Part shown: positions 1-12,896 of the stretch, in pieces
Layout: each line of letters begins with the position of its first letter
How positions within the stretch are numbered: the first letter of the stretch is position 1
Virus record (IMG/VR): IMGVR_UViG_2541047596_000008
Span: 1-12,896 of that record
Strand: one strand, 5' to 3'
Source of the DNA: a virus
Taxonomy: Duplodnaviria > Heunggongvirae > Uroviricota > Caudoviricetes
DNA: 12,896 nucleotides
The notes under the pieces: model-generated
Database searches by the model: none
Seen by the model: only the letters and a program-made list of their open reading frames with translations
What the model was told of the DNA's origin: nothing
Made by a program: the position numbers and the translations under genes

Positions 1-267
1 TTACTCTGCAGGTGAAGTCGGCCACTCAATATCAGGTGCAGTTGATGTATCAACACGATTCAACAATACCCGATATTTATTCCATGCCTCCAGCAACGAT
101 CTTTCTTCCGCCGTTGCGATTTCCAGATCTACAGCATCCTGCAGTGGCGCAATATACTCACTGAATTCCTGGATGTGGAACTGTGTGGTGACGGTCTTCC
201 AGTCATTCGGCTCCTGCTGTATCGAAGCATACCAGGCTATTTCAATATCGCTATGCTGCGGCAGCAT
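1..267 (-). CDS. Tail fibre assembly protein remnant (C-terminal chaperone domain only, 88 aa)
   Basis: The C-terminal 55 residues ([45 protein letters not shown]) are near-identical to the C-terminus of the full tfa at 1047..1631; the N-terminal part is unrelated. ATG at 265-267 and TAA at 1-3. Confidence 0.7.
20..165. repeat. Direct repeat copy A (tfa C-terminal coding sequence), about 85% identical to 1069..1214
   Basis: By eye the nucleotide strings ggccactcaatatcaggtgcagttgatgtatcaacac ... ttccagatct(a/g)cagcatcctg recur at both positions in the same orientation. Confidence 0.7.
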
Positions 268-294
268 TTAACCCCTTGTAATTCATCGCCATAA

Positions 295-323
295 TTGATT
301 TAATTCACAAATAAAACTATAAC
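295..323 (+). promoter_or_regulatory. Candidate sigma70 promoter for the methyltransferase gene (TTGATT, 17-nt spacer, TATAAC)
   Basis: Hexamers at about 295-300 and 318-323 in an AT-rich stretch directly upstream of the ORF. A GGTGA Shine-Dalgarno at 326-330 favours the ATG at 336 over the ATG at 324 as the true start. Confidence 0.3.
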
Positions 324-992
324 ATGGTGAAATCAATGAAAAAAAACACAGATGATGGGGCTAAAATTTACACACCACTTACCCTAAAGCTTTATGACTG
401 GTGGGTTTTGGGAGTATCAAATCGGCTTGCATGGGGATGTCCTACAAAGGAACACCTTCTTCCACACTTTCTGGAACATGTAGGTAACAACCATCTGGAT
501 ATTGGTGTTGGAACTGGGTTTTACCTTACTCACGTACCTGAGAGTAGTCTGATATCTTTAATGGATTTGAACGAAGCTAGCCTGAACGCGGCATCTACAA
601 GGGCTGGGGAATCAAAAATTAAACATAAAATTAGCCATGATGTTTTTGAACCTTATCCCGCGGCGTTACATGGTCAATTTGATTCCATTTCCATGTTTTA
701 CCTTCTTCACTGCCTGCCTGGAAATATATCTACAAAAAGCTGTGTAATACGCAATGCGGCGCAGGCCTTAACTGACGATGGAACTCTATACGGAGCCACA
801 ATTCTTGGCGATGGAGTTGTGCACAATAGCTTCGGTCAAAAACTGATGCGCATTTACAATCAGAAAGGCATCTTTTCAAACACAAAAGATTCCGAAGAAG
901 GCTTAACACATATACTCTCAGAGCATTTCGAGAATGTTAAAACCAAGGTTCAAGGTACTGTAGTAATGTTTTCCGCTTCAGGGAAAAAATAG
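324..992 (+). CDS. Class I SAM-dependent methyltransferase (prophage moron); true start probably the ATG at 336
   Basis: Motif I LDIGVGTGF (glycine-rich SAM-binding loop) followed by an acidic residue at the end of the next strand (LMDLNEA). AT-rich relative to the flanking tail genes, opposite strand to them, and sandwiched between tfa and a tfa remnant. This arrangement resembles the tfaD-ybcY-tfaX arrangement I recall from E. coli K-12 prophage DLP12 (from memory, unverified). Confidence 0.75.
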   Translation: MVKSMKKNTDDGAKIYTPLTLKLYDWWVLGVSNRLAWGCPTKEHLLPHFLEHVGNNHLDIGVGTGFYLTHVPESSLISLMDLNEASLNAASTRAGESKIKHKISHDVFEPYPAALHGQFDSISMFYLLHCLPGNISTKSCVIRNAAQALTDDGTLYGATILGDGVVHNSFGQKLMRIYNQKGIFSNTKDSEEGLTHILSEHFENVKTKVQGTVVMFSASGKK

Positions 993-999
993 CATCCAA

Positions 1000-1032
1000 C
1001 CGCAGCACGTTCTTGCTTAAGACGTGCTGCGG
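1000..1032. terminator. Stem-loop between the convergent methyltransferase and tfa genes (11-bp perfect stem, 11-nt loop)
   Basis: ccgcagcacgt (1000-1010) pairs with acgtgctgcgg (1022-1032). On the minus strand the stem is followed a few nt later by a T-run (TATTTTTT), consistent with termination of the tfa transcript. Confidence 0.5.
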
Positions 1033-1046
1033 CATAATCCCAATGA

Positions 1047-1631
1047 TTACTCCCTGACAGGGTTCGTAGGCCACTCAATATCAGGTGCAGTTGATGTATC
1101 AACACGGTTCAGCAACACCCGATACTTTTTCCAGGCTTCCAGCAATGAGGTTTCTTTCTCCGTTGCAATTTCCAGATCTGCAGCATCCTGAAGCGGCGCA
1201 ATATGCTCACTGGCTACCTGCATCAGGTTGTTTTTTGTTTCTTCCGCCTCCCGGATCCGGAACAGTTTTTCTGCTTCCGTATCCTTCACCCAGGCTGTGC
1301 CGTTCCACTTCTGAAACTCCCCTTCCGGCGATAACCAGGTAACATTTTCCGGTAACGGACCGAGTTCAGAAATAAATAACTCGTCCCCTGACGCTACGTC
1401 ATAAACCGTTTTCCCCCGATGGTCTTCAACGAGATGCCACGATGCCTCATCACTGTTGAAAACAGCCACAAAGCCAGCAGGAATATCTGGTGGTGCAATA
1501 TCGGTACTGTTTGCTGGCAGACCTGTATGAGGCGGAATATATGCGTCACCTTCACCAATAAATTCATTAGTTCCGGCCAGCAGATTATAAATTTTTATGG
1601 TCCGTGCTTGTTCACTCATTCTGAATGCCAT
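1047..1631 (-). CDS. tfa: Tail fibre assembly protein Tfa (194 aa)
   Basis: The translation ([44 protein letters not shown]...) is near-identical over its whole length to my recollection of phage lambda Tfa. Its start ATG overlaps the stf stop (TAATG). Confidence 0.9.
1069..1214. repeat. Direct repeat copy B (tfa C-terminal coding sequence), partner of 20..165
   Basis: See copy A; same orientation, about 85% identity by eye. Confidence 0.7.
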
Positions 1632-4600
1632 TATGCAAGCCTCACAATATAGTTAAATGCGATGTTTTTGACGGTGTTTTCCGCGTTACCCGCAGCGTTA
1701 ACGGTGATGGTGTGTCCATGTGAACCAATCGCAACGGAGTGCGTATGCGCACCAATACCTACAGTATGTGCATGTGCGCCAGAACTTGCTGCAGTACCAG
1801 ACAGCGAGTGGGTATGAGCACCTGCTGACTGTGTCTGAATACGTTGATAATACGATCTATAGGAAGAAGTCTCCGGGCTTACTTGATACTGTGAATTCTG
1901 GACATAAGTGAACCCACCGCCATCATAAAATGCTAACGCAGAACCGCCGCCTCCTGGCCAACGAATACCATTACCATGAGTATGAACACCGGCAGACCCC
2001 GTAGAGCCACTCAGACTGTGCGTATGCGCCCCGGTGTTATTCGTGGATTTAGTGCCGTAATCAAACGACGATGTGGTTTTCGTCCCCAAATCCGTACTGG
2101 ATGCGCTGGCGCTGTGGGTGTGCGATTTTATGCCGTCCTGTTCCTGAGACAATACGGCCCGGCCACTGGCGGGTTTGCCCTTGATTGTCCAGCCGCGCAT
2201 ATCTGGAATAACACCTGAAGGATAGGCAATAGCCAGTTTCGGATATGCTGCCTTATCAAACGTCTGCCCCTGCATGATCGCATAACCTGCAGGTGGTGTA
2301 TCTGATGGCCACGGCAGCGGAACACCTGGCGGAAACGCTTCAATATTTGCCGAGCCGTCAAATTTTACGCCGTTAATTGTCCTTGCAGTTTGCAATTTGG
2401 TTGCTGTGCTTGCATTACCCGATAAAGATCCAGTGATACCACCACTCGCGTTTAATTTAGTTGCAATTGTAACATTGCCAGTATGGTTACTAATTATAAA
2501 CGGCCTTAAGCTATTGTGCGTACCAAGACTGTTACCCGAATCTGTCAACATAAAATATGTGTTTGATCCATCATTTCGGATAAAGAATCCATAGTTGCCA
2601 TAGGCAATACGCAGACCATTTGCTGACCTTGAAATAACCTCACCAGCAGCAGTTAAACCACCTGAAAGAGTCCCTCCAGTTAATGCCAATGCCCCAATAT
2701 TTGAAGGGGTCAATGTGATATTTGCACTACCATCAAATGACACACCGTTAATCGTTCTGGCTGCCTGAAGTTTCGTGGCGGTCGCAGCATTACCTGTAGT
2801 GTTTTGATTACCGGTAGCGTTGACTCCAGGCAAGTTGATATCTGCCGATCCATCAAATGCCACGCCCCCAATCTTACGTGCTGTCTTGATCTTGGTCGCA
2901 GTATCTGCGTTTCCGGTCAAATTACCAGTAACACTACCACCAACTTTTAGTCCATTACCGATGGACACCAACCCTGATCTTAAGTTTATAGAGAATGGTC
3001 TTAATGAACCGATGTCTCCATTTTCCCCCTCCCCTTCATTAGTCGGAATAAGATGAAGATGATCTTCGGAACGCCTAAAAATAAGGCCAAAGGCTTGGTT
3101 GAATATTCGAAGAGCATTTATCGTGCTGATTTTTAACTGCCCTCCCATTGTGTCGCCAGTTTTTTGAACTGAACTATCTTTAACAGTTTTAACTGCCTTT
3201 GGCGTTGCCGCCAGCTTTTCACTGGTGCTGTTTGTTGCACTGCTGAGCTGTACTATCCCCTTTTTCGTCGTGCTCGCATCCTCCAGCGCCACGGCGGATG
3301 CAATATCCTCTGCCCGTTTTGCTGCTGTCTCGGCGCGCGTTGCCGCGGATTCAGCAGCAACTTTGCTCTGAGATGCAGCCATCGCACTGCCTGCCGCCTC
3401 TGATGCTTTCGTTGTTGCTGTCGTGGCACTACCTTTCGCTGCTGACGCTTGTCTGGTCGCCTCATCTTTTGAAGCAGACGCAGATGATGCCGATGACGCC
3501 GCTGAACTGGCTGACGATGCGGCTGCCGCCTTAGAGGAAGCAGCATTGTCTGCTGAAGTCTTTGCATTTGTTTCAGAGGTTTTTGCTGCAGAAGCAGACC
3601 TCGCTGCTGCAGTGGCTTGCTCAGTGGCTTTGCCAGCTTTCGTTGTGGCTGTTGAAGCGGATGATGCGGCGCTTTCTGCCGATTTTCCGGCGGCGGTGGC
3701 ACTGGCTGAGGCCTGCCCGGCACTTGTTGACGCGGCACTGGCAGATAATGCAGCCGCTGTTTTTGAACCTGCCGCAGCTGAGGCGCTCTGTCCCGCTGCT
3801 GTTTCAGAAGACTTAGCGTTCGTCTCGGACGTTTTTGCCGCCTTCGCGGAATTTCCTGCCGCCGTTGCCGAGGAAGCTGCACTACTGGCACTTGATGATG
3901 CATTCGTTTCTGAAGATTTCGCTGCCTCTTTTGAGGCCGCCGCACCCCGTGCCGAGGTGGCAGCTTCTGACGCCTTCGTGGTCGCTGTGGATGCAGAAGT
4001 GGCTGCCGATTTTTGTGATGCTGCGGCATTCGTTTCTGACGTTTTCGCGGCACTGGCGCTGGTAGCTGCCGCGCTTTTTGATGACTCTGCAGCAGCAGCA
4101 CTTTTTGCTGCTTCACGGGCCTTTGTCGATGCCGTTCCTGCGCTGGAAGACGCTGACTGAGCCGACGACGCGGCCTGTCCGGCTGACGTGCTGGCGGCAC
4201 GTGCTGAGGCTGCAGCATCGGTTGCATGAGTTGCCGCCTCGCTGGCTGATGCACTGGCATCGCTGGCTGATTTTTTCGCGGCTGCCGTATTCTGTGCAAC
4301 CGCGGAGGCGTTACGTGACACCTCTTCCACCATCTGCTCAAAGCGGCGCAGTGCCTCCGGTCGGACATCATCCTCCGTCATGGCACCGAGAAAATCATTC
4401 AGCGTACCTGGTCTGGAACCTTCATAGACGGTAATGGTCCCGGCATGTGAAGGCGGAAAACCTTCAACCAGCAGGGTGACGCTGTACTGGCCATGCTCAA
4501 CATCCATGCTGTAACGTCCGGCTTCATCCGGATTTTCAGAGGCCACCGTGTTCACCACCACCGTGCTGCTGGTTCGTCTGGCCTTCAGCACAATGGTGCA

Positions 4601-4657
4601 GTTCTGTACTGGTTTTCCTGTGCCATCTTTAAGCACGCCAGAAATTTTTACTGTCAT
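1631..4657 (-). CDS. stf: Side tail fibre protein Stf (1008 aa), mosaic
   Basis: The N-terminus ([20 protein letters not shown]...) and the C-terminal HxH-rich tip (GAHTHSLSG..., [49 protein letters not shown]) match my recollection of lambda Stf. There is a long Ala/Ser/Thr-rich low-complexity region with recurring KTSETNA units and three copies of a phage tail-fibre repeat (GN-A-TATK-TAR-I-GV-FDGSA-I). Confidence 0.9.
3220..4300 (-). repeat. Low-complexity Ala/Ser/Thr-rich repetitive coding region inside stf
   Basis: Protein residues about 120-480 are dominated by A/S/T with recurring [15 protein letters not shown] and [10 protein letters not shown] units. This region produces long spurious ORFs in other frames on both strands. 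Confidence 0.7.
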
Positions 4658-4670
4658 ACTTTTCCACCAA

Positions 4671-4704
4671 TAAAAAAAGCCCGCAGCAGTGACGCCACGG
4701 GCTT
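4671..4704 (-). terminator. Probable rho-independent terminator downstream of lom (minus strand)
   Basis: On the minus strand a GC stem (AAGCCCG...CGGGCTT) is followed by TTTTTTTATT, lying between the lom stop and the stf start. The stem is imperfect and the loop long, so confidence is modest. Confidence 0.4.
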
Positions 4705-4808
4705 CAGGACAGTGTAACTTTACGTTTCCTCAAACGCAGTTCACCCCATAAGGTGGATGAACCTGCGTATCATAACAATATTTACAGAAGATAAATCGGC
4801 GTCTGTTG

Positions 4809-5408
4809 TCAGAAACGGTATCCGATACCAACAATAAATGCATCCGTTCGCCAGTCGCCACTACCGGAACCTTCATAAGCAAGGTCAATGGTTACGGATT
4901 CGGTCGGGTTAAACTGCACGCCAGCCCCCCACGCCAGAGACGTGTTGCTGTGGCGACCGTCATCACTTCCGGTCAGCACATCGTGCGTTTTCCCCTTGTT
5001 GTCAGTTACGCGGAGATAATCCCCGGAGAAAGTCGACACACGGCTGTAAGCCACACCCACCATCGCATACGCGCTGAACCATTCATTCACGCGTACAGAC
5101 GGCCCCGCCATCACGCTGAACCAGCGGTTACGCACGGAATCTTCATGCCAGCGGGTATCGCTGTAGCGCGTTTTTTGCTCATCCTCAGCATTGGCATAAC
5201 TGAAGGACGTAATCAGCCCCAGCGCGTCCGTAAACTCATAACGGTATTTCACGTTAATCCCGTTCAGATTATCGCTGCCGGGAGCGTTCGTACGGGCATG
5301 AAGATACCCCGCGCTCAGTGTGGACTGATGTTCAGACGCCCATGCAGGCGCACCGGATACGGACAGACAGATGGCTGCGGACAAAATGGCTGCACAAACT
5401 TTACGCAT
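4809..5408 (-). CDS. lom: Lom outer-membrane protein (Ail/Lom family beta-barrel)
   Basis: Signal peptide MRKVCAAILSAAICLSVSGAPAWA, C-terminal aromatic residue (GYRF), and near-identity to lambda Lom as I recall it. GAGG Shine-Dalgarno about 7 nt upstream. Confidence 0.92.
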   Translation of the reverse strand: MRKVCAAILSAAICLSVSGAPAWASEHQSTLSAGYLHARTNAPGSDNLNGINVKYRYEFTDALGLITSFSYANAEDEQKTRYSDTRWHEDSVRNRWFSVMAGPSVRVNEWFSAYAMVGVAYSRVSTFSGDYLRVTDNKGKTHDVLTGSDDGRHSNTSLAWGAGVQFNPTESVTIDLAYEGSGSGDWRTDAFIVGIGYRF

Positions 5409-5431
5409 AATTACCTCTCGCTTTTCTGCAA

Positions 5432-5456
5432 TAAAAAAGGCGCCATTTCTGGCGCC
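5432..5456 (-). terminator. Rho-independent terminator between the J-like remnant and lom (minus strand)
   Basis: Minus-strand hairpin GGCGCC-AGAAAT-GGCGCC immediately followed by TTTTTTATT. Confidence 0.55.
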
Positions 5457-5475
5457 CGTATTGGGGTTATAAAAT

Positions 5476-6126
5476 TCAGCTAATCGTGATGCCTGCAGTG
5501 GCTTTCTTCATCACAACAACCAGCAAATCGCTGATACTTGCTGTGGGATACCAGCCATTTACCCACCATGCTGATACAGAAAACTCCAGCGTCATGTGGC
5601 CGCGACCAGCAGGCATATCAATAACACCACTGTAAATCAGCGTATTATCCAGCGCGGTACGGTTATAAATTTCAGCACCGTTTTTCCGTACTATCAGGCG
5701 GCATGACGAATAAGTATCGCTGTTCTCCCGCTCATGTCTGGCACCGCTGAAAGCCACCGCCGGAATAACAATCTGCCGGTTAAACGGCTGATCGTCATAA
5801 ACCCTGACGGTAATGGTTCCTGATGGCCAACGCTCCGGTGCACGGGAGTCACGGGGGAAAGCCTTACCCACTGTTTTAACGAGATCGCCTTCAATCTGGT
5901 TTGCAGACAGTTTCCCTCTGATGACACAGTTCTCGTTAATGGTGACATTATTGAGCGTGCCGGTATTCGCCGTGATGGCTCCACTGATATAAGGGGTTAT
6001 GGCCACCGGACTACCAAACGGCTGCCAGCCCTCTTTCAGTTTATGTGTCAGCTTTTCCGCAAGATCTGACGGCGACGCCGCTCTGACAACATCATAGTGT
6101 TTAAATGCCATGGTTCTTTCCACCAT
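5476..6126 (-). CDS. Probable C-terminal remnant of the central tail fibre/host-specificity protein J (about 210 aa retained)
   Basis: Position only: it sits immediately upstream of lom with a 67-bp gap, as J does in lambda. Base composition switches abruptly to AT-rich at about 6127, and the reading frame is open upstream to a stop near 6196 without a convincing start signal. I cannot recall the J C-terminal sequence well enough to confirm homology. Confidence 0.5.
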
Positions 6127-6371
6127 CTGAAAAATGATTCTTTAAAATACCTGACATGTAATACAGAAAAAACACAAAACCATACCTTAATTAAAAACCT
6201 CATCATCAAGCAGATATGCATGGATAAACTACAAGACGAGATATAAACCACCCTGCATTTAAATAAACAATAAACAACATCAGAAAAATAATTCTGCTCT
6301 ATGGTTTACAATCAAAAATATCATTTATACTTTTCAGAACATCACCAGCAAGGCATAAACAAGGAAACTAA

Positions 6372-6707
6372 ATGAAGTGGATTGTGATTGATACAGTTAT
6401 CCAGCCATCATGCGGAATATCTTTTTCAGTCATATGGAGTAAAATAAAATTAATAATCTGGTATCAATCGGATGCTTTCTTACCTCCTGAAAGTATATTT
6501 ACACTGACTCACACAGGCATCATGCTCAATAACAAAGTGCTGCCTGTAACCATTTACAACGTAGTACCATTCAATAAAACATTCTGGAATTTAATCAAAA
6601 ACAGCCAGGAATGCCCTACAAATACAGATAACGTATTGAATGAATGCTTTAATAACCGTTGCACTCTGCAAATATGTCCTTATGGGCTAAAACAACAAAG
6701 TCCATAA
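6372..6707 (+). CDS. Hypothetical protein, AT-rich cargo gene (111 aa, Cys-rich C-terminus)
   Basis: Good Shine-Dalgarno (AAGGAA, about 5 nt before the ATG) and a candidate promoter upstream (TTTACA, 17-nt spacer, TACTTT, about 6303-6331). About half of its Ile codons are the rare ATA. The C-terminus has four Cys spaced as C-x11-C-x4-C-x4-C ([23 protein letters not shown]). No family recognised. Confidence 0.4.
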
Positions 6708-6741
6708 GGAGTTTACTCACATCTGACAAAATCAATATAAA

Positions 6742-6763
6742 CAGCCCCTCCGGAGAGGGGCTG
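6742..6763. terminator. Strong GC hairpin (9-bp perfect stem, 4-nt loop), likely bidirectional terminator for the convergent cargo units
   Basis: CAGCCCCTC-CGGA-GAGGGGCTG; on the minus strand it is followed by TTTATATTGATTTTG. It lies 35 nt after the stop of the 6372..6707 ORF. Confidence 0.45.
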
Positions 6764-7154
6764 GAGAGTGGCGCTATGTGCCATTGCATGGTGCCGGGTG
6801 CCTCCCGGTGAATTCAGTACCAGCACCTGAATCCGCGATTATCCCATATACCTACTCGCTGATTGCCCCTCCGCACAGGGGGATTCACCATGCCAGTTTC
6901 TTTTAACAAACTCCCCGCAAACCAGACAACAGTCAACCGCCTGAATTGTGAAGTATTTAAAAATTTCTCCCGCTAACTGATACCCGGCTAACAGTCTGGC
7001 GTTTTCTTTTTCAGCAACGGGAAAGCAGCAACCACCACACCCGCCACCAGCACACCGTCAGCCAGCACTGACATTATCCGGCTGCTGCAATGCCATTCAC
7101 AAAAACAGTAAGCAATCACTTTTTACCGTAACCGGTGATAATCCAGATATGTAT

Positions 7155-7511
7155 CTACCCCAGATGAGTAATCCGAAGTTCATCCATACCACAGGTCCTG
7201 GCTATTCTGTTGTACTCCTGAACAAGAGCAAATAATTCTGAATTAGCCACCATGAACTCATCGCAAACCCTCTGTATAGCATCACTATTCAGAATAATAA
7301 CGTCTCTTCCCGAAAGACGATCAGGAGTACAGAACAAAACTGTCAAACGGCTGAAGGCCTTTGCTCGTTCTGCATTGACTATATCAATACGCTGCCTAAG
7401 GATGAAACACCCCGACGCCTCATCAATATTCACTCTACCCACACCATATGAATGATAAATATTTAATGCTGAAAAAACCATTAGACCGTATAACAAACAC
7501 TCAATCAACAC
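7155..7511 (-). CDS. Hypothetical protein, cargo ORF immediately downstream of the tRNA cluster (118 aa as tracked)
   Basis: The tracked start is a GTG with no Shine-Dalgarno; the first ATG is at codon 11. It is rich in rare AGA/AGG/ATA codons. No family recognised; it could be a remnant. Confidence 0.35.
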   Translation of the reverse strand: MLIECLLYGLMVFSALNIYHSYGVGRVNIDEASGCFILRQRIDIVNAERAKAFSRLTVLFCTPDRLSGRDVIILNSDAIQRVCDEFMVANSELFALVQEYNRIARTCGMDELRITHLG

Positions 7512-7618
7512 TTAACAGAACTTTTATTTTTGACAAACATATAATATTTTCAACAATATCCTGAGCCAGGTATATTTCAGTATAAGGCTCTGCCGAAAGG
7601 AATCTGGAAGAATGAATA

Positions 7619-7695
7619 TGGCGCGCTGTACTGGATTCGAACCAGTGACCGATTGCTTAGAAGGCAATTGCTCTGTCCGGCTGAGCTAACAACGC
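7619..7695 (-). tRNA. tRNA-Arg (anticodon UCU)
   Basis: The minus-strand sequence GCGTTGTTAGCTCAGCCGGACAGAGCAATTGCCTTCTAAGCAATCGGTCACTGGTTCGAATCCAGTACAGCGCGCCA folds as a cloverleaf with anticodon loop CTTCTAA, a GGTTCGAATCC T-arm and an encoded CCA. Confidence 0.85.
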
Positions 7696-7708
7696 ATGAT
7701 GCAGATAA

Positions 7709-7785
7709 TGGACCGCCATCGGGGACTTGAACCCCGCGCAGCCAGCTTCGAAGGCTGGCGCTCTTTCCTGATGAGCTAATGGCGG
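7709..7785 (-). tRNA. tRNA-Arg (anticodon UCG)
   Basis: The minus-strand sequence ...TAGCTCATCAGGAAAGAGCGCCAGCCTTCGAAGCTGGCTGCGCGGGGTTCAAGTCCCCGATGGCGGTCCA has anticodon stem CCAGC/GCTGG, loop CTTCGAA and a GGTTCAAGTCC T-arm. Confidence 0.8.
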
Positions 7786-7792
7786 TATGTGA

Positions 7793-7868
7793 TGGTGGCC
7801 CTTGCTGGATTTGAACCAGCGACCTGGCGATTATGAGTCGCTCGCTCTCACCACTGAGCTAAAGGGCC
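7793..7868 (-). tRNA. tRNA with CAU anticodon, most likely tRNA-Ile2 (lysidine-modified, reads AUA), alternatively tRNA-Met
   Basis: The minus-strand sequence GGCCCTTTAGCTCAGTGGTGAGAGCGAGCGACTCATAATCGCCAGGTCGCTGGTTCAAATCCAGCAAGGGCCACCA closely resembles E. coli ileX-type tRNA as I recall it; anticodon loop CTCATAA. Confidence 0.85.
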
Positions 7869-7904
7869 GGGAGCAGAATAATAACGGTCCGTAATTAATT
7901 CCGC

Positions 7905-7931
7905 AATAAAAAACCCGCTCGGCGGCGGGTT
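7905..7931 (-). terminator. tR'-like rho-independent terminator downstream of the Q-like gene
   Basis: Minus-strand hairpin AACCCGC-CGCCGA-GCGGGTT followed by TTTTTTATT, located between the candidate late promoter and the tRNA cluster. Confidence 0.6.
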
Positions 7932-7978
7932 GTAGAAACTCTTCTAACGTCAGGCATAAAAAGCCCATTGTTATGACG

Positions 7979-8006
7979 AATTTACCACAGATTCCGGAAA
8001 AATCAA
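7979..8006 (-). promoter_or_regulatory. Candidate late promoter (pR'-like) and presumptive Q-utilisation region
   Basis: On the minus strand TTGATT (8006..8001), a 16-nt spacer, then TAAATT (7984..7979), starting immediately after the Q-like stop. This is the same position as pR' relative to Q in lambda. Confidence 0.4.
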
Positions 8007-8011
8007 CCTTG

Positions 8012-8833
8012 TTACCTAGTTACCTTTTTTAACTGCCGCTCAGCCCATGCTTCTTCAATATCAAACCGGGTCACCAGCGCATCATAGAATTTCTTAACTG
8101 TTTTTTCCCATGACGCGCGTGTTATCTGGTTTGTCACCTCGCATATAGCATTAAATGCCTCCGTTGATGGTAGTCTTTCATAGCCACGACCACCACAACG
8201 CTGGCAGTCTCTGATAACAGGCATACCACGTTTTACCGACTCTTCACGATGAATGGCGACACCACGCCCACGGCAATCCTTACAGGCGGTGGAAACCTCA
8301 CCCTTTCCGCCACACTCCGGACAGGCAACTTTTACCACCTCCCTGACTTTTTTCCATTCTTCCCAGTAAGACGAATACACACCTTTCGTACACTTTGCCC
8401 ATACCGGCGGCTTACCATCCGGATACTGGACCTTGTTTGTAAAAACTACGCTTTCAATAAATTTTTCCCCATAGCAACAAGGGCACTGCTTTTTACTCGC
8501 TGCGCTGCGGGCATAATCCTCAAAAGCGTACGAAGCCATAATGCGCATCACTACCGGTTTTATTTCTGCCGGAAGTTTTCTCAACGCCGCCACACGATCG
8601 CACCGACTGAGTGCATAATCTGCCAGTAATTCTGTTGCCCGCGCCCTGTCATTCATACTGATGCCCATTTTCCCCAGGAACGCAGAAAAACCCATCTCAG
8701 CCCGATTCTGTGTCATGCCCTGCGCGGCCATCACATCAGTGATACTCAGCGCATCTTTTGACGTTGAGGCCGATGCATCGGTCAGGCCAGGGGATTTTGG
8801 GGAGTAGTATTTCGGTAAATCTTCCAGTTTCAT
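8012..8833 (-). CDS. Putative late-gene antitermination protein (Q-like) with four CxxCxGxG zinc-finger repeats
   Basis: Position: after rusA and before a promoter, terminator and the tRNAs. The C-terminal half carries CPCCYGEKF, CPECGGKGE, CKDCRGRGV and CQRCGGRGY. Size and position fit the larger Q-like proteins of E. coli prophages. The family assignment rests on synteny and zinc-finger content, not on a recognised alignment. Confidence 0.6.
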   Translation of the reverse strand: MKLEDLPKYYSPKSPGLTDASASTSKDALSITDVMAAQGMTQNRAEMGFSAFLGKMGISMNDRARATELLADYALSRCDRVAALRKLPAEIKPVVMRIMASYAFEDYARSAASKKQCPCCYGEKFIESVVFTNKVQYPDGKPPVWAKCTKGVYSSYWEEWKKVREVVKVACPECGGKGEVSTACKDCRGRGVAIHREESVKRGMPVIRDCQRCGGRGYERLPSTEAFNAICEVTNQITRASWEKTVKKFYDALVTRFDIEEAWAERQLKKVTR

Positions 8834-8847
8834 TTTTTGACCTGCTC

Positions 8848-9210
8848 TTAATGCATTATGGGGTAAATCTTCACCCCCAGACGTCCACCAGATACTGGCT
8901 GACCACGAACGATATTGATTTCATCAAACTGCTCATCGTCCATTAACACTCCCGCATGCGTCAGCGCATCCAGCGGTGCTTTCAGGATATTGTCCAGGTC
9001 GCGACGACGCTTATCCGGTGGCTCTGCAATCACCTTTATCGCCAGCCTTCCGGACAGGTTTAATTTCAGCCGCTGCTGGCGAACAATTAGCGCCACATCA
9101 CGGCGATAACGCTTTCCGGCCTCCGAGATGAAATACGTATTGCCATGACGTCGCCAGTAGGTATTCACCGTCGGCGGGTAAGGCAAAACAAATTCTATGC
9201 GTTCAGTCAT
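8848..9210 (-). CDS. rusA: Holliday junction resolvase RusA
   Basis: 120 aa with the motif PDKRRRDLDN and a downstream acidic MDDEQ, close to E. coli RusA as I recall it. The start ATG abuts the upstream stop (TGAATG). Confidence 0.88.
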   Translation of the reverse strand: MTERIEFVLPYPPTVNTYWRRHGNTYFISEAGKRYRRDVALIVRQQRLKLNLSGRLAIKVIAEPPDKRRRDLDNILKAPLDALTHAGVLMDDEQFDEINIVRGQPVSGGRLGVKIYPIMH

Positions 9211-10269
9211 TCATGCTTTCCACTTCAGGACACCCGAATTTCTCGCGTGCATTAAAAAACGAATCAGCAACAACAGCTGGCTGCCGTGTTTTTCTTCAAA
9301 ATCTTTTACCCCGGCGTGCAGTTCGTTATGACATTTACGGCACAGCGGAATAACAAACAAATCATCAGCCTTTGTTCCCATACCTCCCAGGCCATGACCA
9401 ATGATGTGATGCGGATCATCTGCCTGATTACCGCACGTCATGCATTTCTGCGTTTTTACCCAGCGCGTGTATACAGGCATCTCTTCCCGTTGTGGTTTCT
9501 GGCGCTGGAGATACTGAGCCGGAGACTCCGGATCAACGGCGATGCTTACTAACGTCTTTTCCTGGAGTGGGGGCTGTTGCTGGTGGACGTGAAGTGGCAG
9601 CGCAATATTTTTTGTGCGCTGCTTCAGTATGCTGGTGGCAGTCTGTTCTCCCGGTACGATGTCACTCTCACGGTATACGGAGCGGATTTTTTCCACCGGT
9701 AATCCCAGTGAACGACACAATACAGACTCCGGAAGCGCATCAGCCACCTGATTGCAGACCGCCCACCAGGATAATTCGGCCAGCGATAACTCCCTCTCCT
9801 GCGTACCGCTGATTGCGTGACGGATGACGTCAATCATCCATGCTGACAAGTTTTGGTGAGCAAGTTGCTCAAGTGATTCTGAGGTCTGGTCACACAACTG
9901 GTTGTCGCAGTGCCAGCACAACACCATTGCGCCGGTACCATAACGGTGAATGACGGTTTCACTGTGGTGATAATCACCGTGTGGCCACTGGCAGGATTTA
10001 ATATGGCGCAACAGCCAGTCAGACAGTGCACCAGCGCCGCCAGCAGCACGAATCACACGCTCATTGCTGAAAAATGGCAGTAATGATTTATCCTCCGCCA
10101 GCGGCTGGCGAACGGCAGGGACGACTCCGGATGGCAGGCCGCACATGCTTTTCGGTTCCGGCTCCACCAGCACTCGAGGATTATGAAATATCTGTATGGA
10201 TTCACGGCCCGGCTTAAGGACCACCAGCCCAAGCTCAGGCACCAGAACAGGTCTAAGTAATACCCGCAC
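9211..10269 (-). CDS. DUF968-type phage protein with C-terminal HNH-like zinc-finger motif (nin-region gene); N-terminus possibly over-extended
   Basis: C-terminal CMTCGNQADDPHHIIGHGLGGMGTKADDLFVIPLCRKCHNELH (CxxC, HH, CxxCH). Position upstream of rusA. An internal ATG at codon 42 has a GGAG-like Shine-Dalgarno and may be the real start. Confidence 0.6.
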   Translation of the reverse strand: MRVLLRPVLVPELGLVVLKPGRESIQIFHNPRVLVEPEPKSMCGLPSGVVPAVRQPLAEDKSLLPFFSNERVIRAAGGAGALSDWLLRHIKSCQWPHGDYHHSETVIHRYGTGAMVLCWHCDNQLCDQTSESLEQLAHQNLSAWMIDVIRHAISGTQERELSLAELSWWAVCNQVADALPESVLCRSLGLPVEKIRSVYRESDIVPGEQTATSILKQRTKNIALPLHVHQQQPPLQEKTLVSIAVDPESPAQYLQRQKPQREEMPVYTRWVKTQKCMTCGNQADDPHHIIGHGLGGMGTKADDLFVIPLCRKCHNELHAGVKDFEEKHGSQLLLLIRFLMHARNSGVLKWKA

Positions 10270-10398
10270 GTTACCTCCAGATCCGTTGCTGGAAAGTGCG
10301 GGACGGACGTGGTGGGCGTTCGGAATAAGGCAGCCTGACAGAGATTATCCAGTGCCGATAACCAAGTAAAAGTCACCGCTGACGAAGTAAACAAAATT

Positions 10399-11478
10399 AT
10401 GCAGGCAGCCAATATCAGCCAGCCTGACGCCGATAAGTTGCTTGCTGCATCACGTGGTGAATTTGTTGAAGGGATTAGTGACCCGAATGATCCGAAATGG
10501 GTTAAGGGGCTCCAGACCCGCGATTCTGTGAACCAGAACCAGCATGAATCGGAACGGAACTACCAAAAAGCGGAACAAAACAGTCCAAATGCGTTACAAA
10601 ACGAGCCAGAAACGAAACAGCCTGAACCAGTAGCGCAACAGGAAGTGGAAAAAGTCTGCACCGCCTGCGGTCAGACCGGCGGCGGCAACTGCCCTGATTG
10701 TGGCGCGGTGATGGGCGACGCAACATACCAAGAAACATTCGATGAAGAGTATCAGGTTGAAGTTCAGGAAGATGATCCGGAGGAAATGGAAGGCGCTGAA
10801 CATCCACACAAGGAGAACACTGGCGGCAATCAGCATCACAATAGCGATAATGAAACTGGCGAGACGGCAGATCACCCAATTAAGGTGAACGGTCATCACG
10901 AAATCACATCCACCAGCAGGACGTGTGACCATCTAATGATCGACCTTGAAACCATGGGAAAAAATCCTGATGCCCCGATCATCTCAATAGGTGCAATATT
11001 TTTCGATCCGCAAACCGGAGATATGGGACCGGAATTTAGTAAGACTATCGATCTGGAAACTGCTGGCGGAGTCATTGATCGGGACACCATTAAATGGTGG
11101 CTTAAGCAATCACGCGAAGCGCAATCTGCCATTATGACCGATGAAATCCCGTTAGATGATGCACTGTTACAATTGCGAGAATTTATCGACGAAAACTCCG
11201 GTGAATTTTTTGTTCAGGTTTGGGGAAATGGAGCCAACTTCGACAACACGATTTTGCGCCGTTCATACGAACGGCAGGGGATCCCCTGCCCGTGGCGTTA
11301 CTACAACGATCGCGATGTACGCACAATCGTTGAGCTGGGGAAAGCCATAGACTTCGATGCCAGAACGGCTATTCCATTCGAAGGTGAGCGCCATAATGCA
11401 CTTGATGACGCCCGTTACCAGGCAAAATACGTTTCAGTTATCTGGCAAAAACTGATCCCGAGTCAGGCTGATTTTTAA
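10399..11478 (+). CDS. DEDDh-family 3'-5' exonuclease with a long acidic N-terminal extension containing a C4 zinc ribbon
   Basis: Exo I motif MIDLETMG, Exo II motif VWGNGANFD and Exo III motif [10 protein letters not shown] in the C-terminal roughly 180 aa. The N-terminal roughly 180 aa is low-complexity and acidic with [16 protein letters not shown]. It lies just upstream of xis and int, the position of early-left recombination or accessory genes. Confidence 0.7.
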
Positions 11479-11539
11479 TGTTCAACCGTCGCCAGTTGTC
11501 GTTGATATTCTGCAACTGGCGCGTTCCGGAGTGATAGCC

Positions 11540-11809
11540 ATGAGCGAACAGTACCTGATAACGCTCGACGAGTGGAAACCAAAACGGTTCAGTCTCCCAA
11601 TAACAAACACTACCCTGGTGAAATACGGAAAACTAGGATACATCGTTCCAAGGCCACAAAAAATTCGTGGGCGTTGGCTGATAGATCGCCGAGCAGTATT
11701 TGTTGGGCCTGGTGAAACGGGAATTGCGCCGGAAATTCATACTGGCGATGATGATGCACTGAAGGAGATTTTAACTCATGTCACCGAGGCCACGAAAAAA
11801 CAGCACTGA
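11540..11809 (+). CDS. xis: Excisionase-like protein (Xis)
   Basis: Small basic protein immediately upstream of, and overlapping, the integrase gene. GGAG Shine-Dalgarno 8 nt before the ATG at 11540; the tracked ORF begins at an upstream GTG at 11531. Assignment is mainly positional. Confidence 0.55.
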   Translation: MSEQYLITLDEWKPKRFSLPITNTTLVKYGKLGYIVPRPQKIRGRWLIDRRAVFVGPGETGIAPEIHTGDDDALKEILTHVTEATKKQH

Positions 11810-12896
11810 CGTAGCCGGTCTTTACGAAAAGTTTGATCGCAGAACTGGCAGAGTTTACTACCAGTATAAAAATCCTGTGACTGGAAAATTTCACGGACTC
11901 GGAACAGACAAAGGTAAGGCAGAAAAAATCGCTTCCACAGCCAATCAGCGAATAGCTGCAGCAGAAGCTGAATATTTCATGCGCAAAATTGATGAAAGTC
12001 CGTCAGCAACAAAACGTCGGGGTATCAGATTAAAGGCATGGGTTGATCGATATCTGAAAATACAGGACACGCGACTGAAAAATGGAGATATTGCAGCTAC
12101 AACTCACAAAGAAAAAACTCGAATGGCTGCATACCTGGTTTCCCGTCTGGGAAACCACCCATTGAAAGAACTGGAAGTAAGAGACTTTGCATTAATACTG
12201 GATGAGTGGCTGGATAAAGACATGGTCAGCACAGCGAGAGTAAATCGTGGATTATGGGTTGATATTTATAAAGAAGCACAGCATGCAGGGGAAGTTCCTC
12301 CTGGATGGAATCCTCCGGAGGCTACCCGTAAACCGATCCCTAAAGTAACCAGAGCCAGGCTCACCATGGAAGACTGGCAAAAAATTTACAATGCAACGCC
12401 TGAAAAACACTTTATCCGTAACGCAATGCTTCTTGCGATTGTTACTGGTCAGCGCCGTGATGACATTTGCCACATGCGTTTTTCAGATGTGTGGAACGAA
12501 CACTTGCATATCACCCAGGGAAAAACCGGAATGCGTCTGGCGTTACCGCTTACACTACGCTGTGATGCCATTGGGATAACGTTAAAAGAAGTTATTGATG
12601 GGTGCCGAGACAGAATATTAAGTCCATATCTAATCCATAGTCGGCACCAGAAACAACCGAAGCCGATGAGTAAAGACAACCTGAGCGACTACTTTGCCAA
12701 AGCACGGGATCTGGCTGGGATAATTCCACCAGCAGGAAAAACTCCGCCAACATTTCATGAACAACGCTCTCTATCAGAACGGCTGTACCGTGCACAGGGT
12801 ATCGATACAAAAACATTACTAGGACATAAAGTCCAGGCAACCACCGATCGCTATAACGATACTCGAGGTCAGGAATGGGTTAAGTTGGTTATTTGA
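11778..12896 (+). CDS. int: Lambda-family tyrosine integrase
   Basis: Catalytic-core motifs TGQRRDDICHMRF, HEQRSLSERLY and LLGHKVQATTDRYNDTRGQEW (catalytic Tyr) align with lambda Int as I recall it. AAGGAG Shine-Dalgarno upstream. The 5' end overlaps xis. The gene is transcribed towards the right edge, so the att site should lie just beyond the window. Confidence 0.9.
   Translation: MSPRPRKNSTDVAGLYEKFDRRTGRVYYQYKNPVTGKFHGLGTDKGKAEKIASTANQRIAAAEAEYFMRKIDESPSATKRRGIRLKAWVDRYLKIQDTRLKNGDIAATTHKEKTRMAAYLVSRLGNHPLKELEVRDFALILDEWLDKDMVSTARVNRGLWVDIYKEAQHAGEVPPGWNPPEATRKPIPKVTRARLTMEDWQKIYNATPEKHFIRNAMLLAIVTGQRRDDICHMRFSDVWNEHLHITQGKTGMRLALPLTLRCDAIGITLKEVIDGCRDRILSPYLIHSRHQKQPKPMSKDNLSDYFAKARDLAGIIPPAGKTPPTFHEQRSLSERLYRAQGIDTKTLLGHKVQATTDRYNDTRGQEWVKLVI

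Follow-up and report, generated by a model that had tools for sequence, protein, structure and literature searches.

The iraL gene, an STnc100 small RNA and a conserved 92-codon gene at the stx2 position of a deleted lambdoid prophage

Elements of the island

We have analyzed a 12,896-nucleotide stretch of viral DNA (Caudoviricetes; IMG/VR record IMGVR_UViG_2541047596_000008), referred to below as the window. It is a lambdoid prophage that reads mostly on the minus strand, and our subject is the island that follows its late antiterminator gene Q and three tRNA genes. An earlier note on this DNA had described an uncharacterized, AT-rich island in the slot where Shiga toxin phages carry stx, holding a 118-amino acid open reading frame (ORF) at 7155-7511 on the minus strand, a convergent 111-amino acid ORF at 6372-6707 on the plus strand and a GC hairpin between them. 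The order Q, terminator, three tRNAs and cargo was given correctly there, as were the positions of both ORFs and the hairpin. A small RNA (sRNA) on the minus strand at 6733-6922 and a DUF3927 gene on the same strand at 6988-7119 had been overlooked. The island contains the following elements.

6372 to 6707, plus strand: iraL, encoding an RssB anti-adaptor of 111 amino acids (identity to CFT073 IraL; NCBIfam NF007393)
6305 to 6371, plus strand: iraL promoter (TTTACA ... TATACT), with the start at 6339 and a 5′ untranslated region containing an AAGGA Shine-Dalgarno sequence
6733 to 6922, minus strand: predicted prophage sRNA STnc100 (Rfam RF02076; 132.4 bits against a gathering score of 47)
6742 to 6763, minus strand: intrinsic terminator hairpin of STnc100, with a 9-bp stem including 7 G-C pairs, followed by TTTATATTGA
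6988 to 7119, minus strand: gene for a DUF3927/TciB-like small single-pass membrane protein of 43 amino acids (Pfam PF13064)
7155 to 7433, minus strand: 92-codon gene with a GTG start, encoding a small acidic protein predicted to form a helical hairpin (phrog_2873, E = 1.7e-70)

Most of this locus is already known, comprising a published anti-adaptor, a catalogued sRNA and a Pfam domain family. The residual item is the 92-codon gene, which lies at the position of stx.

An anti-adaptor gene and a prophage small RNA

The 111-amino acid protein is identical at 111/111 residues to IraL of uropathogenic Escherichia coli CFT073 (C_RS06710 = c1429 = WP_000871291.1); the published definition of an iraL match is an identity of at least 95% (PMC4045071). 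Its score against the NCBIfam IraM model NF007393 is 162 bits (E = 4.7e-48), above the cut-off of 121, with the match spanning protein residues 1-110 and profile positions 1-113 of 114, and RefSeq names the gene "anti-adapter protein IraM" in complete E. coli genomes. IraL of CFT073 is an RssB anti-adaptor (Hryckowian et al. 2014, PMC4045071), for which binding to RssB and stabilization of RpoS in log phase were shown experimentally in that study. The gene is known from published work to regulate the general stress response of uropathogenic E. coli and of Shigella. On the strength of this identity the 111-amino acid ORF is the known gene iraL, and the function in lysogenic conversion demonstrated in CFT073 would extend to the window. 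The earlier note had suggested lysogenic conversion as the kind of function, which is right given IraL. It had also held that neither protein of the island resembles any family and that the function is undescribed, and for this protein both statements are mistaken.

The promoter-like and Shine-Dalgarno signals proposed for this ORF were correct and had already been borne out by experiment. The iraL mRNA's 5′ end was mapped in CFT073 by 5′-RACE (rapid amplification of cDNA ends) as ACATCACCAGCAAGGCATAAACAAGGAAACCA (PMC4045071), and this sequence matches window positions 6339-6370 at 31 of 32 bases, with one mismatch. Over the 50 bases upstream of the start the window and CFT073 are identical at 48 (96%), and TATACT lies 7 nt before the start. 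The wider locus in CFT073 is also alike, with Q, three tRNAs, the DUF3927 gene, the STnc100 region, iraL and a DUF1737 gene.

IraM of E. coli K-12 (b1160) belongs to the same family (NF007393) with a published identity of 59%, and shares an N-terminal 12-residue motif and the C-terminal ICPYGLK motif. It is a more distant homologue of the window protein than is CFT073 IraL, belonging to a different allele group, lying in a genomic context next to e14 and differing in the 4-residue C-terminal extension. Over residues 1-78 IraL is 60% identical to the crystallized IraM (PDB 8TWD). In that structure 13 IraM residues make contact with RssB (clusters I-III), of which ten are identical in IraL (I4, I6, W22, K26, I42, C14, F18, W30, I61 and Y62) and three are changed (T13S, H63N and I64V). 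IraL is reported to bind RssB differently from IraM, so that conservation of the contact residues is supportive rather than decisive. The two RssB domains are bridged by IraM, which Mg2+ starvation induces, whereas IraL is reported to bind the N-terminal domain only and to act in log phase (PMC4045071).

Between iraL and the late-strand genes lies a full-length match to the STnc100 covariance model (positions 1-206 of 206). The STnc100 family of prophage sRNAs is a known one, related to PasD and with no established target. Both published STnc_100 quantitative PCR primers match the window exactly, at 6801-6820 and 6871-6890, and their target sequence was detected by reverse-transcription quantitative PCR in vesicles of Shiga toxin-producing E. 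coli (PMC12370729). A discrete small RNA is predicted at 6733-6922. Like other STnc100/PasD sRNAs it ends in a Rho-independent hairpin and lies in the late region upstream of an esterase/DUF1737 gene; at other loci the sRNA is just upstream of that gene, whereas here iraL is inserted between the two. The paper on the prophage sRNA HnrS (PMC13502914) contains neither a sequence nor a mention of STnc100, and we have made no link between them.

The hairpin at 6742-6763, with a fold energy of -18 to -19 kcal/mol, corresponds to the 3′ stem in the Rfam model. Only on the minus strand does a run of T follow it, and so it ends the STnc100 or late-strand transcript and not that of iraL. What had been taken as a hairpin shared between the two ORFs is therefore the STnc100 terminator. 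A bidirectional terminator was considered and ruled out, as the plus strand lacks a T-run. A 42-amino acid ORF on the plus strand (6778-6906) lies antisense within STnc100. In relatives the Prokaryotic Genome Annotation Pipeline (PGAP) labels it a partial "hypothetical protein" pseudogene, and it is probably spurious.

The stx position and its cargo

The 118-amino acid frame at 7155-7511 was rejected as a gene model because its 26 N-terminal codons are not conserved. In alignments of homologues, conservation begins at V27 of that frame, which is the GTG at 7433. Upstream of this GTG there is an in-frame stop five codons away in one related locus (L006), and an extension derived from an insertion sequence (IS) in another (P0017). 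Homologues are 91-95 amino acids long with the same start position, and the phrog_2873 match covers profile positions 1-108 of 108. The earlier description of this ORF as uncharacterized holds insofar as it belongs to no family of known function, while the gene itself is 92 codons long and starts at 7433.

The annotation could be taken to indicate that there is no gene here at all, and that the frame is open by chance in an AT-rich spacer or regulatory region and for that reason uncalled by NCBI. PGAP leaves it unannotated in CFT073 and Eco889 and in every match listed at 98% identity or more, and its GTG start is preceded by a weak Shine-Dalgarno sequence (GGTG/GGGT). Against this, three diverged lineages (69-70% nucleotide identity) all have 92 codons without an indel. 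The ratio of nonsynonymous to synonymous substitution rates (dN/dS) in the 92-codon frame is 0.20-0.32, and changes at third positions are about twice those at first or second positions; the two wrong frames have dN/dS of about 1 and contain 5-10 stops. Homologues as divergent as 33-42% identity keep their length, NCBI does annotate a subfamily of 64% identity (WP_ accessions), and AlphaFold2 gives a confident model, with a predicted local distance difference test score (pLDDT) of 85. We regard a chance frame as very improbable. The comparisons indicate that the 92-codon gene is real and under purifying selection, and it is a gene left out of RefSeq in every near-identical copy listed.

The model consists of two long antiparallel helices and a short loop. 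The protein has no significant match in Pfam, NCBIfam, PADLOC or PDB sequences, and three fold searches with the model returned generic coiled coils only. Among 1.84 billion protein representatives the family forms 22 clusters at 90% and 19 at 50% identity, and its members come from Escherichia and Citrobacter only. CFT073, Eco889 and phage mEp460 each have the gene intact, and of 5426 complete E. coli genomes 1312 contain its DNA. Other prophages have homologues in this same late region, sometimes beside a TerB-like gene and a DUF3927 gene; there are cases in which the homologue follows an AraC-type gene, and in one locus (L014) the homologue precedes the TerB-like gene and DUF3927.

The neighboring 43-amino acid protein matches PF13064 with 92.7 bits against a cut-off of 25 (E = 1.3e-26) and also phrog_1470 (TciB-like, E = 1.5e-11), and its gene is annotated by PGAP in Eco889 and CFT073. 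Read directly, the sequence contains the hydrophobic segment SVLADGVLVAGVVVAAFPLL followed by KKK. A literature search for TciB returned unrelated matches only. In relatives members of PHROG 2873 and PHROG 1470 are repeatedly found with each other in the Q-to-holin interval, separated by a TerB-like gene; unlike these, the window has no TerB-like gene, and 35 bp separate the two ORFs.

Upstream of this cargo on the minus strand lie the following elements.

8012 to 8833, minus strand: Q-type late antiterminator gene, 273 amino acids (Pfam PF03589 Antiterm, E = 6.3e-55)
7979 to 8006, minus strand: candidate pR′-like late promoter, TTGATT, 16-nt spacer, TAAATT (read from the sequence)
7912 to 7931, minus strand: tR′-like intrinsic terminator, with a 7-bp stem including 5 G-C pairs, followed by TTTTTATT
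7619 to 7868, minus strand: three tRNA genes of ileZ-argN-argO type, with CAU, Arg-UCG and Arg-UCU (ARAGORN and Rfam tRNA)

Q forms the upstream end of the late operon and is labelled an antitermination protein in the annotation of Eco889 and CFT073. The candidate promoter lies directly 3′ of the Q stop codon; it matches the consensus at 8/12 positions, under the threshold of the promoter scan, and we infer it as a candidate from its sequence and place. The CAU tRNA is tRNA-Ile in the RefSeq annotation, and the trio is 94.6% identical to the ileZ/argN/argO block of the Stx2a phage WGPS8. In CFT073 an IS200 element sits between Q and the tRNAs (positions 21558-22263 of that locus, against window 7904-7910). 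It is not in the window, so that pR′ and tR′ are contiguous with the tRNAs here.

Alignment of the WGPS8 genome (AP012540.1) with the window extends over both flanks of stx2AB. Window positions 7611-7908 align to the ileZ-argN-argO genes and 5990-6951 to sequence downstream of stx2B in this phage. Its positions 2586-3956, which hold stx2AB and have no counterpart in the window, take the place of window 6951-7611, which holds the 92-codon and DUF3927 genes. A copy of STnc100 follows stx2B by 75 nt in this phage, as published (PMC12370729). By this alignment the two small genes occupy the exact position of stx2AB, between the argO tRNA and STnc100. The Stx2 phages (Stx2a_WGPS8, phage 2851 and the 933W type) are like the window in having Q, pR′/tR′, the ileZ-argN-argO tRNAs, cargo and STnc100 in turn, and past STnc100 an IraM-family gene on the opposite strand and a DUF1737/nanS-p gene. 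They differ in the cargo between argO and STnc100, which is 1370 bp with stx2AB against 660 bp in the window, and in the type of Q, which has 144 amino acids in the Stx2 phage against 273 in the window. The interval from argO to the DUF1737/nanS-p gene is therefore the stx slot, as the earlier note had proposed, with the qualification that iraL lies one module beyond the exact position of stx. It was also right that nothing here resembles StxA or StxB, as no ORF of the island has a Pfam or NCBIfam toxin match.

The IraM-family gene of WGPS8 is an intact, unannotated gene for a 107-amino acid protein at 2012-2335 on the plus strand, past STnc100 and convergent to stx. Its product is 74% identical to IraL and 65% to IraM. 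This 107-amino acid gene occurs in 41 phage records, mostly Stx2, Stx2a and Stx2c converting; most leave it unannotated and a few call it iraM. The earlier note had proposed to see whether the cargo alternates with stx. For the IraM-family genes, which are found alongside stx2 in these records, the relationship is one of co-occurrence and not alternation. We found no paper testing the 107-amino acid protein of Stx2 phages. If it is functional, toxin phages would also alter the stability of RpoS.

The two parts of the island are also found apart. Phage 640R1 shares only 5988-6951 (iraL and STnc100), while mEp460 shares only 6785-8100, comprising the 5′ part of STnc100, DUF3927, the 92-codon gene, the tRNAs and Q. 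In phage phi296 the slot is empty, with a tRNA followed by STnc100 and then nanS. Two loci (L002 and L008) each have two copies of STnc100, every copy following a cargo gene. In these alignments STnc100 seems to mark where moron cassettes of the late region end on their 3′ side. This gives an exact map of which cassettes lie at the stx position and which at the iraL position, with copies of STnc100 marking the boundaries. Breakpoints of mosaicism between related phages are seen within or beside STnc100, at 6785-6951 in the window and in the loci L002, L005, L008 and L013.

We consider it highly probable that the island, in the Q-to-lysis segment of a degraded lambdoid prophage of potB type, is a composite moron region in which an iraL module and a stx-slot module, assorting independently of each other, have been joined at a copy of STnc100. 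The iraL module, convergent to the late operon, would have a sigma-70 promoter of its own for transcription, and so could be expressed in a lysogen without Q and survive decay of the prophage. IraL would bind the N-terminal receiver domain of the adaptor RssB and block the delivery of RpoS to ClpXP, and RpoS escaping ClpXP would be high during exponential growth. The stx-slot module, which follows the three tRNAs immediately on the late strand, would comprise the 92-amino acid protein in the cytoplasm, the DUF3927 membrane protein and STnc100. Since its position is that of stx2, it may be expressed by Q-mediated read-through from pR′ in intact relatives. The STnc100 hairpin would end the cassette, and might also provide homology for cassette exchange. 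With low confidence we suggest that the 92-amino acid protein could be a small protein-binding regulator, with the DUF3927 protein as a membrane-acting partner.

Several points weigh against this interpretation. One is the silence of PGAP on the 92-codon gene described above, and another is that the promoter scan found no intact sigma-70 promoter for that gene or for STnc100. The functions suggested for the stx-slot module are drawn from fold class and gene neighborhood alone. Moreover, the genes for lysis, head, tail, immunity and replication have been lost, so that Q-dependent expression of this module may never occur here.

We give a small probability, in the range of the unlikely, to the 92-amino acid protein, with or without DUF3927, being an unrecognized late moron that replaces Shiga toxin in non-Stx lambdoid prophages and has a host-directed, exclusion or anti-defense role. 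A broader form of this idea is that the whole island is a truly undescribed system for lysogenic conversion, defense or anti-defense, with the two ORFs as its novel effectors. The 92-amino acid protein fits this in its tiny family, its lack of matches in the four collections named above and its place exactly at stx. We nevertheless judge such a system improbable. The larger and better-signalled ORF is the characterized IraL, the hairpin is part of an sRNA from a known family, DUF3927 is already in Pfam, and the ORFs lie in separately assorting modules, which argues that they are not one system. A PADLOC search gave no defense-system hit for the three window proteins, and with a distant homologue it gave one weak hit (E = 0.009, 12.6 bits). 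The defense function raised in the earlier note is thus unsupported, and the composite moron region with two modules is the reading that we prefer.

State of the prophage

The prophage around the island is potB-type, with the same integrase as the CFT073 potB prophage, which has the same gene order from Q to iraL and the same iraL promoter and mapped start sequence. Unlike the window, the CFT073 prophage has intact lysis, head and tail genes. Two deletions are evident by comparison. At the first, about 23.5 kb (lysis, head and tail) between the DUF1737 gene and the 3′ end of the tail-tip gene J is absent, creating the following feature.

5476 to 6126, minus strand: chimeric ORF, in which a DUF1737 N-terminus (nanS-p-type start) is fused in frame to the C-terminal domain of tail-tip J

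In this ORF Pfam DUF1737 covers residues 8-50 and Ig_GpJ_C residues 86-216, the J part being the receptor-binding domain. The junction lies near 5988-5990, at the left edge of the island, in the BLAST map against the CFT073 prophage. At the second deletion, around 10351-10360, the window lacks about 8.5 kb, relative to CFT073, from the early, immunity and replication region. A truncated exonuclease ORF (10399-11478, plus strand) is left by this deletion.

The window has three differing affinities, with 1-5990 being 100% identical to ATCC 25922-type strains, 5988-10360 99.9% identical to Eco889 and 10351-12896 99% identical to CFT073. The DUF1737::J junction was found in 0/5426 complete E. coli genomes, none of which is collinear with the window, and neither deletion junction was found in GTDB species representatives. 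Going by its sequence, the window is a potB-type lambdoid prophage with heavy deletions, and it is either a rare deleted prophage or a chimera of assembly or construction.

The two large deletions, having removed lytic and immunity functions, and the chimeric ORF abutting the island could mean that iraL and its neighbors are inert relics of a decaying prophage with no present function in the host. The state of the island itself argues otherwise. The coding sequence of iraL is 100% that of the functional CFT073 allele with its promoter region and start sequence preserved, and none of the small genes, the three tRNAs or STnc100 is disrupted. The two deletions end precisely to the left and right of the Q-to-iraL block, a pattern that fits its retention. 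The interval 6000-7900 has a partial match in 3337/5426 genomes, and at least 80% of it is kept in 863/5426. Inert relics are accordingly a reading to which we assign little probability, and we favor retention of the composite region.

The description of the island as AT-rich holds in part. The GC fraction is 0.31-0.39 over 6000-6750 and 0.39-0.47 over 7050-7650, against about 0.50 in the flanks, but over 6600-7050 it is 0.48-0.53, so that the AT-richness is patchy.

Some features were observed elsewhere in the window. At the left end, beyond the tail-fiber assembly genes, there is a 222-amino acid ORF on the plus strand (324-992), to which the RefSeq label class I SAM-dependent methyltransferase is given by position only, within the aligned block 1-5990. 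Rfam IS009 (RF02111) matches 1090-1288 on the minus strand with 222 bits, within the region of the tail-fiber-assembly gene. The 1008-amino acid tail-fiber protein (ORF 1631-4657) contains a long low-complexity stretch rich in Ala, Ser and Thr (3150-4350, minus strand), over which the GC fraction rises to 0.55-0.62 with a strongly negative AT skew.

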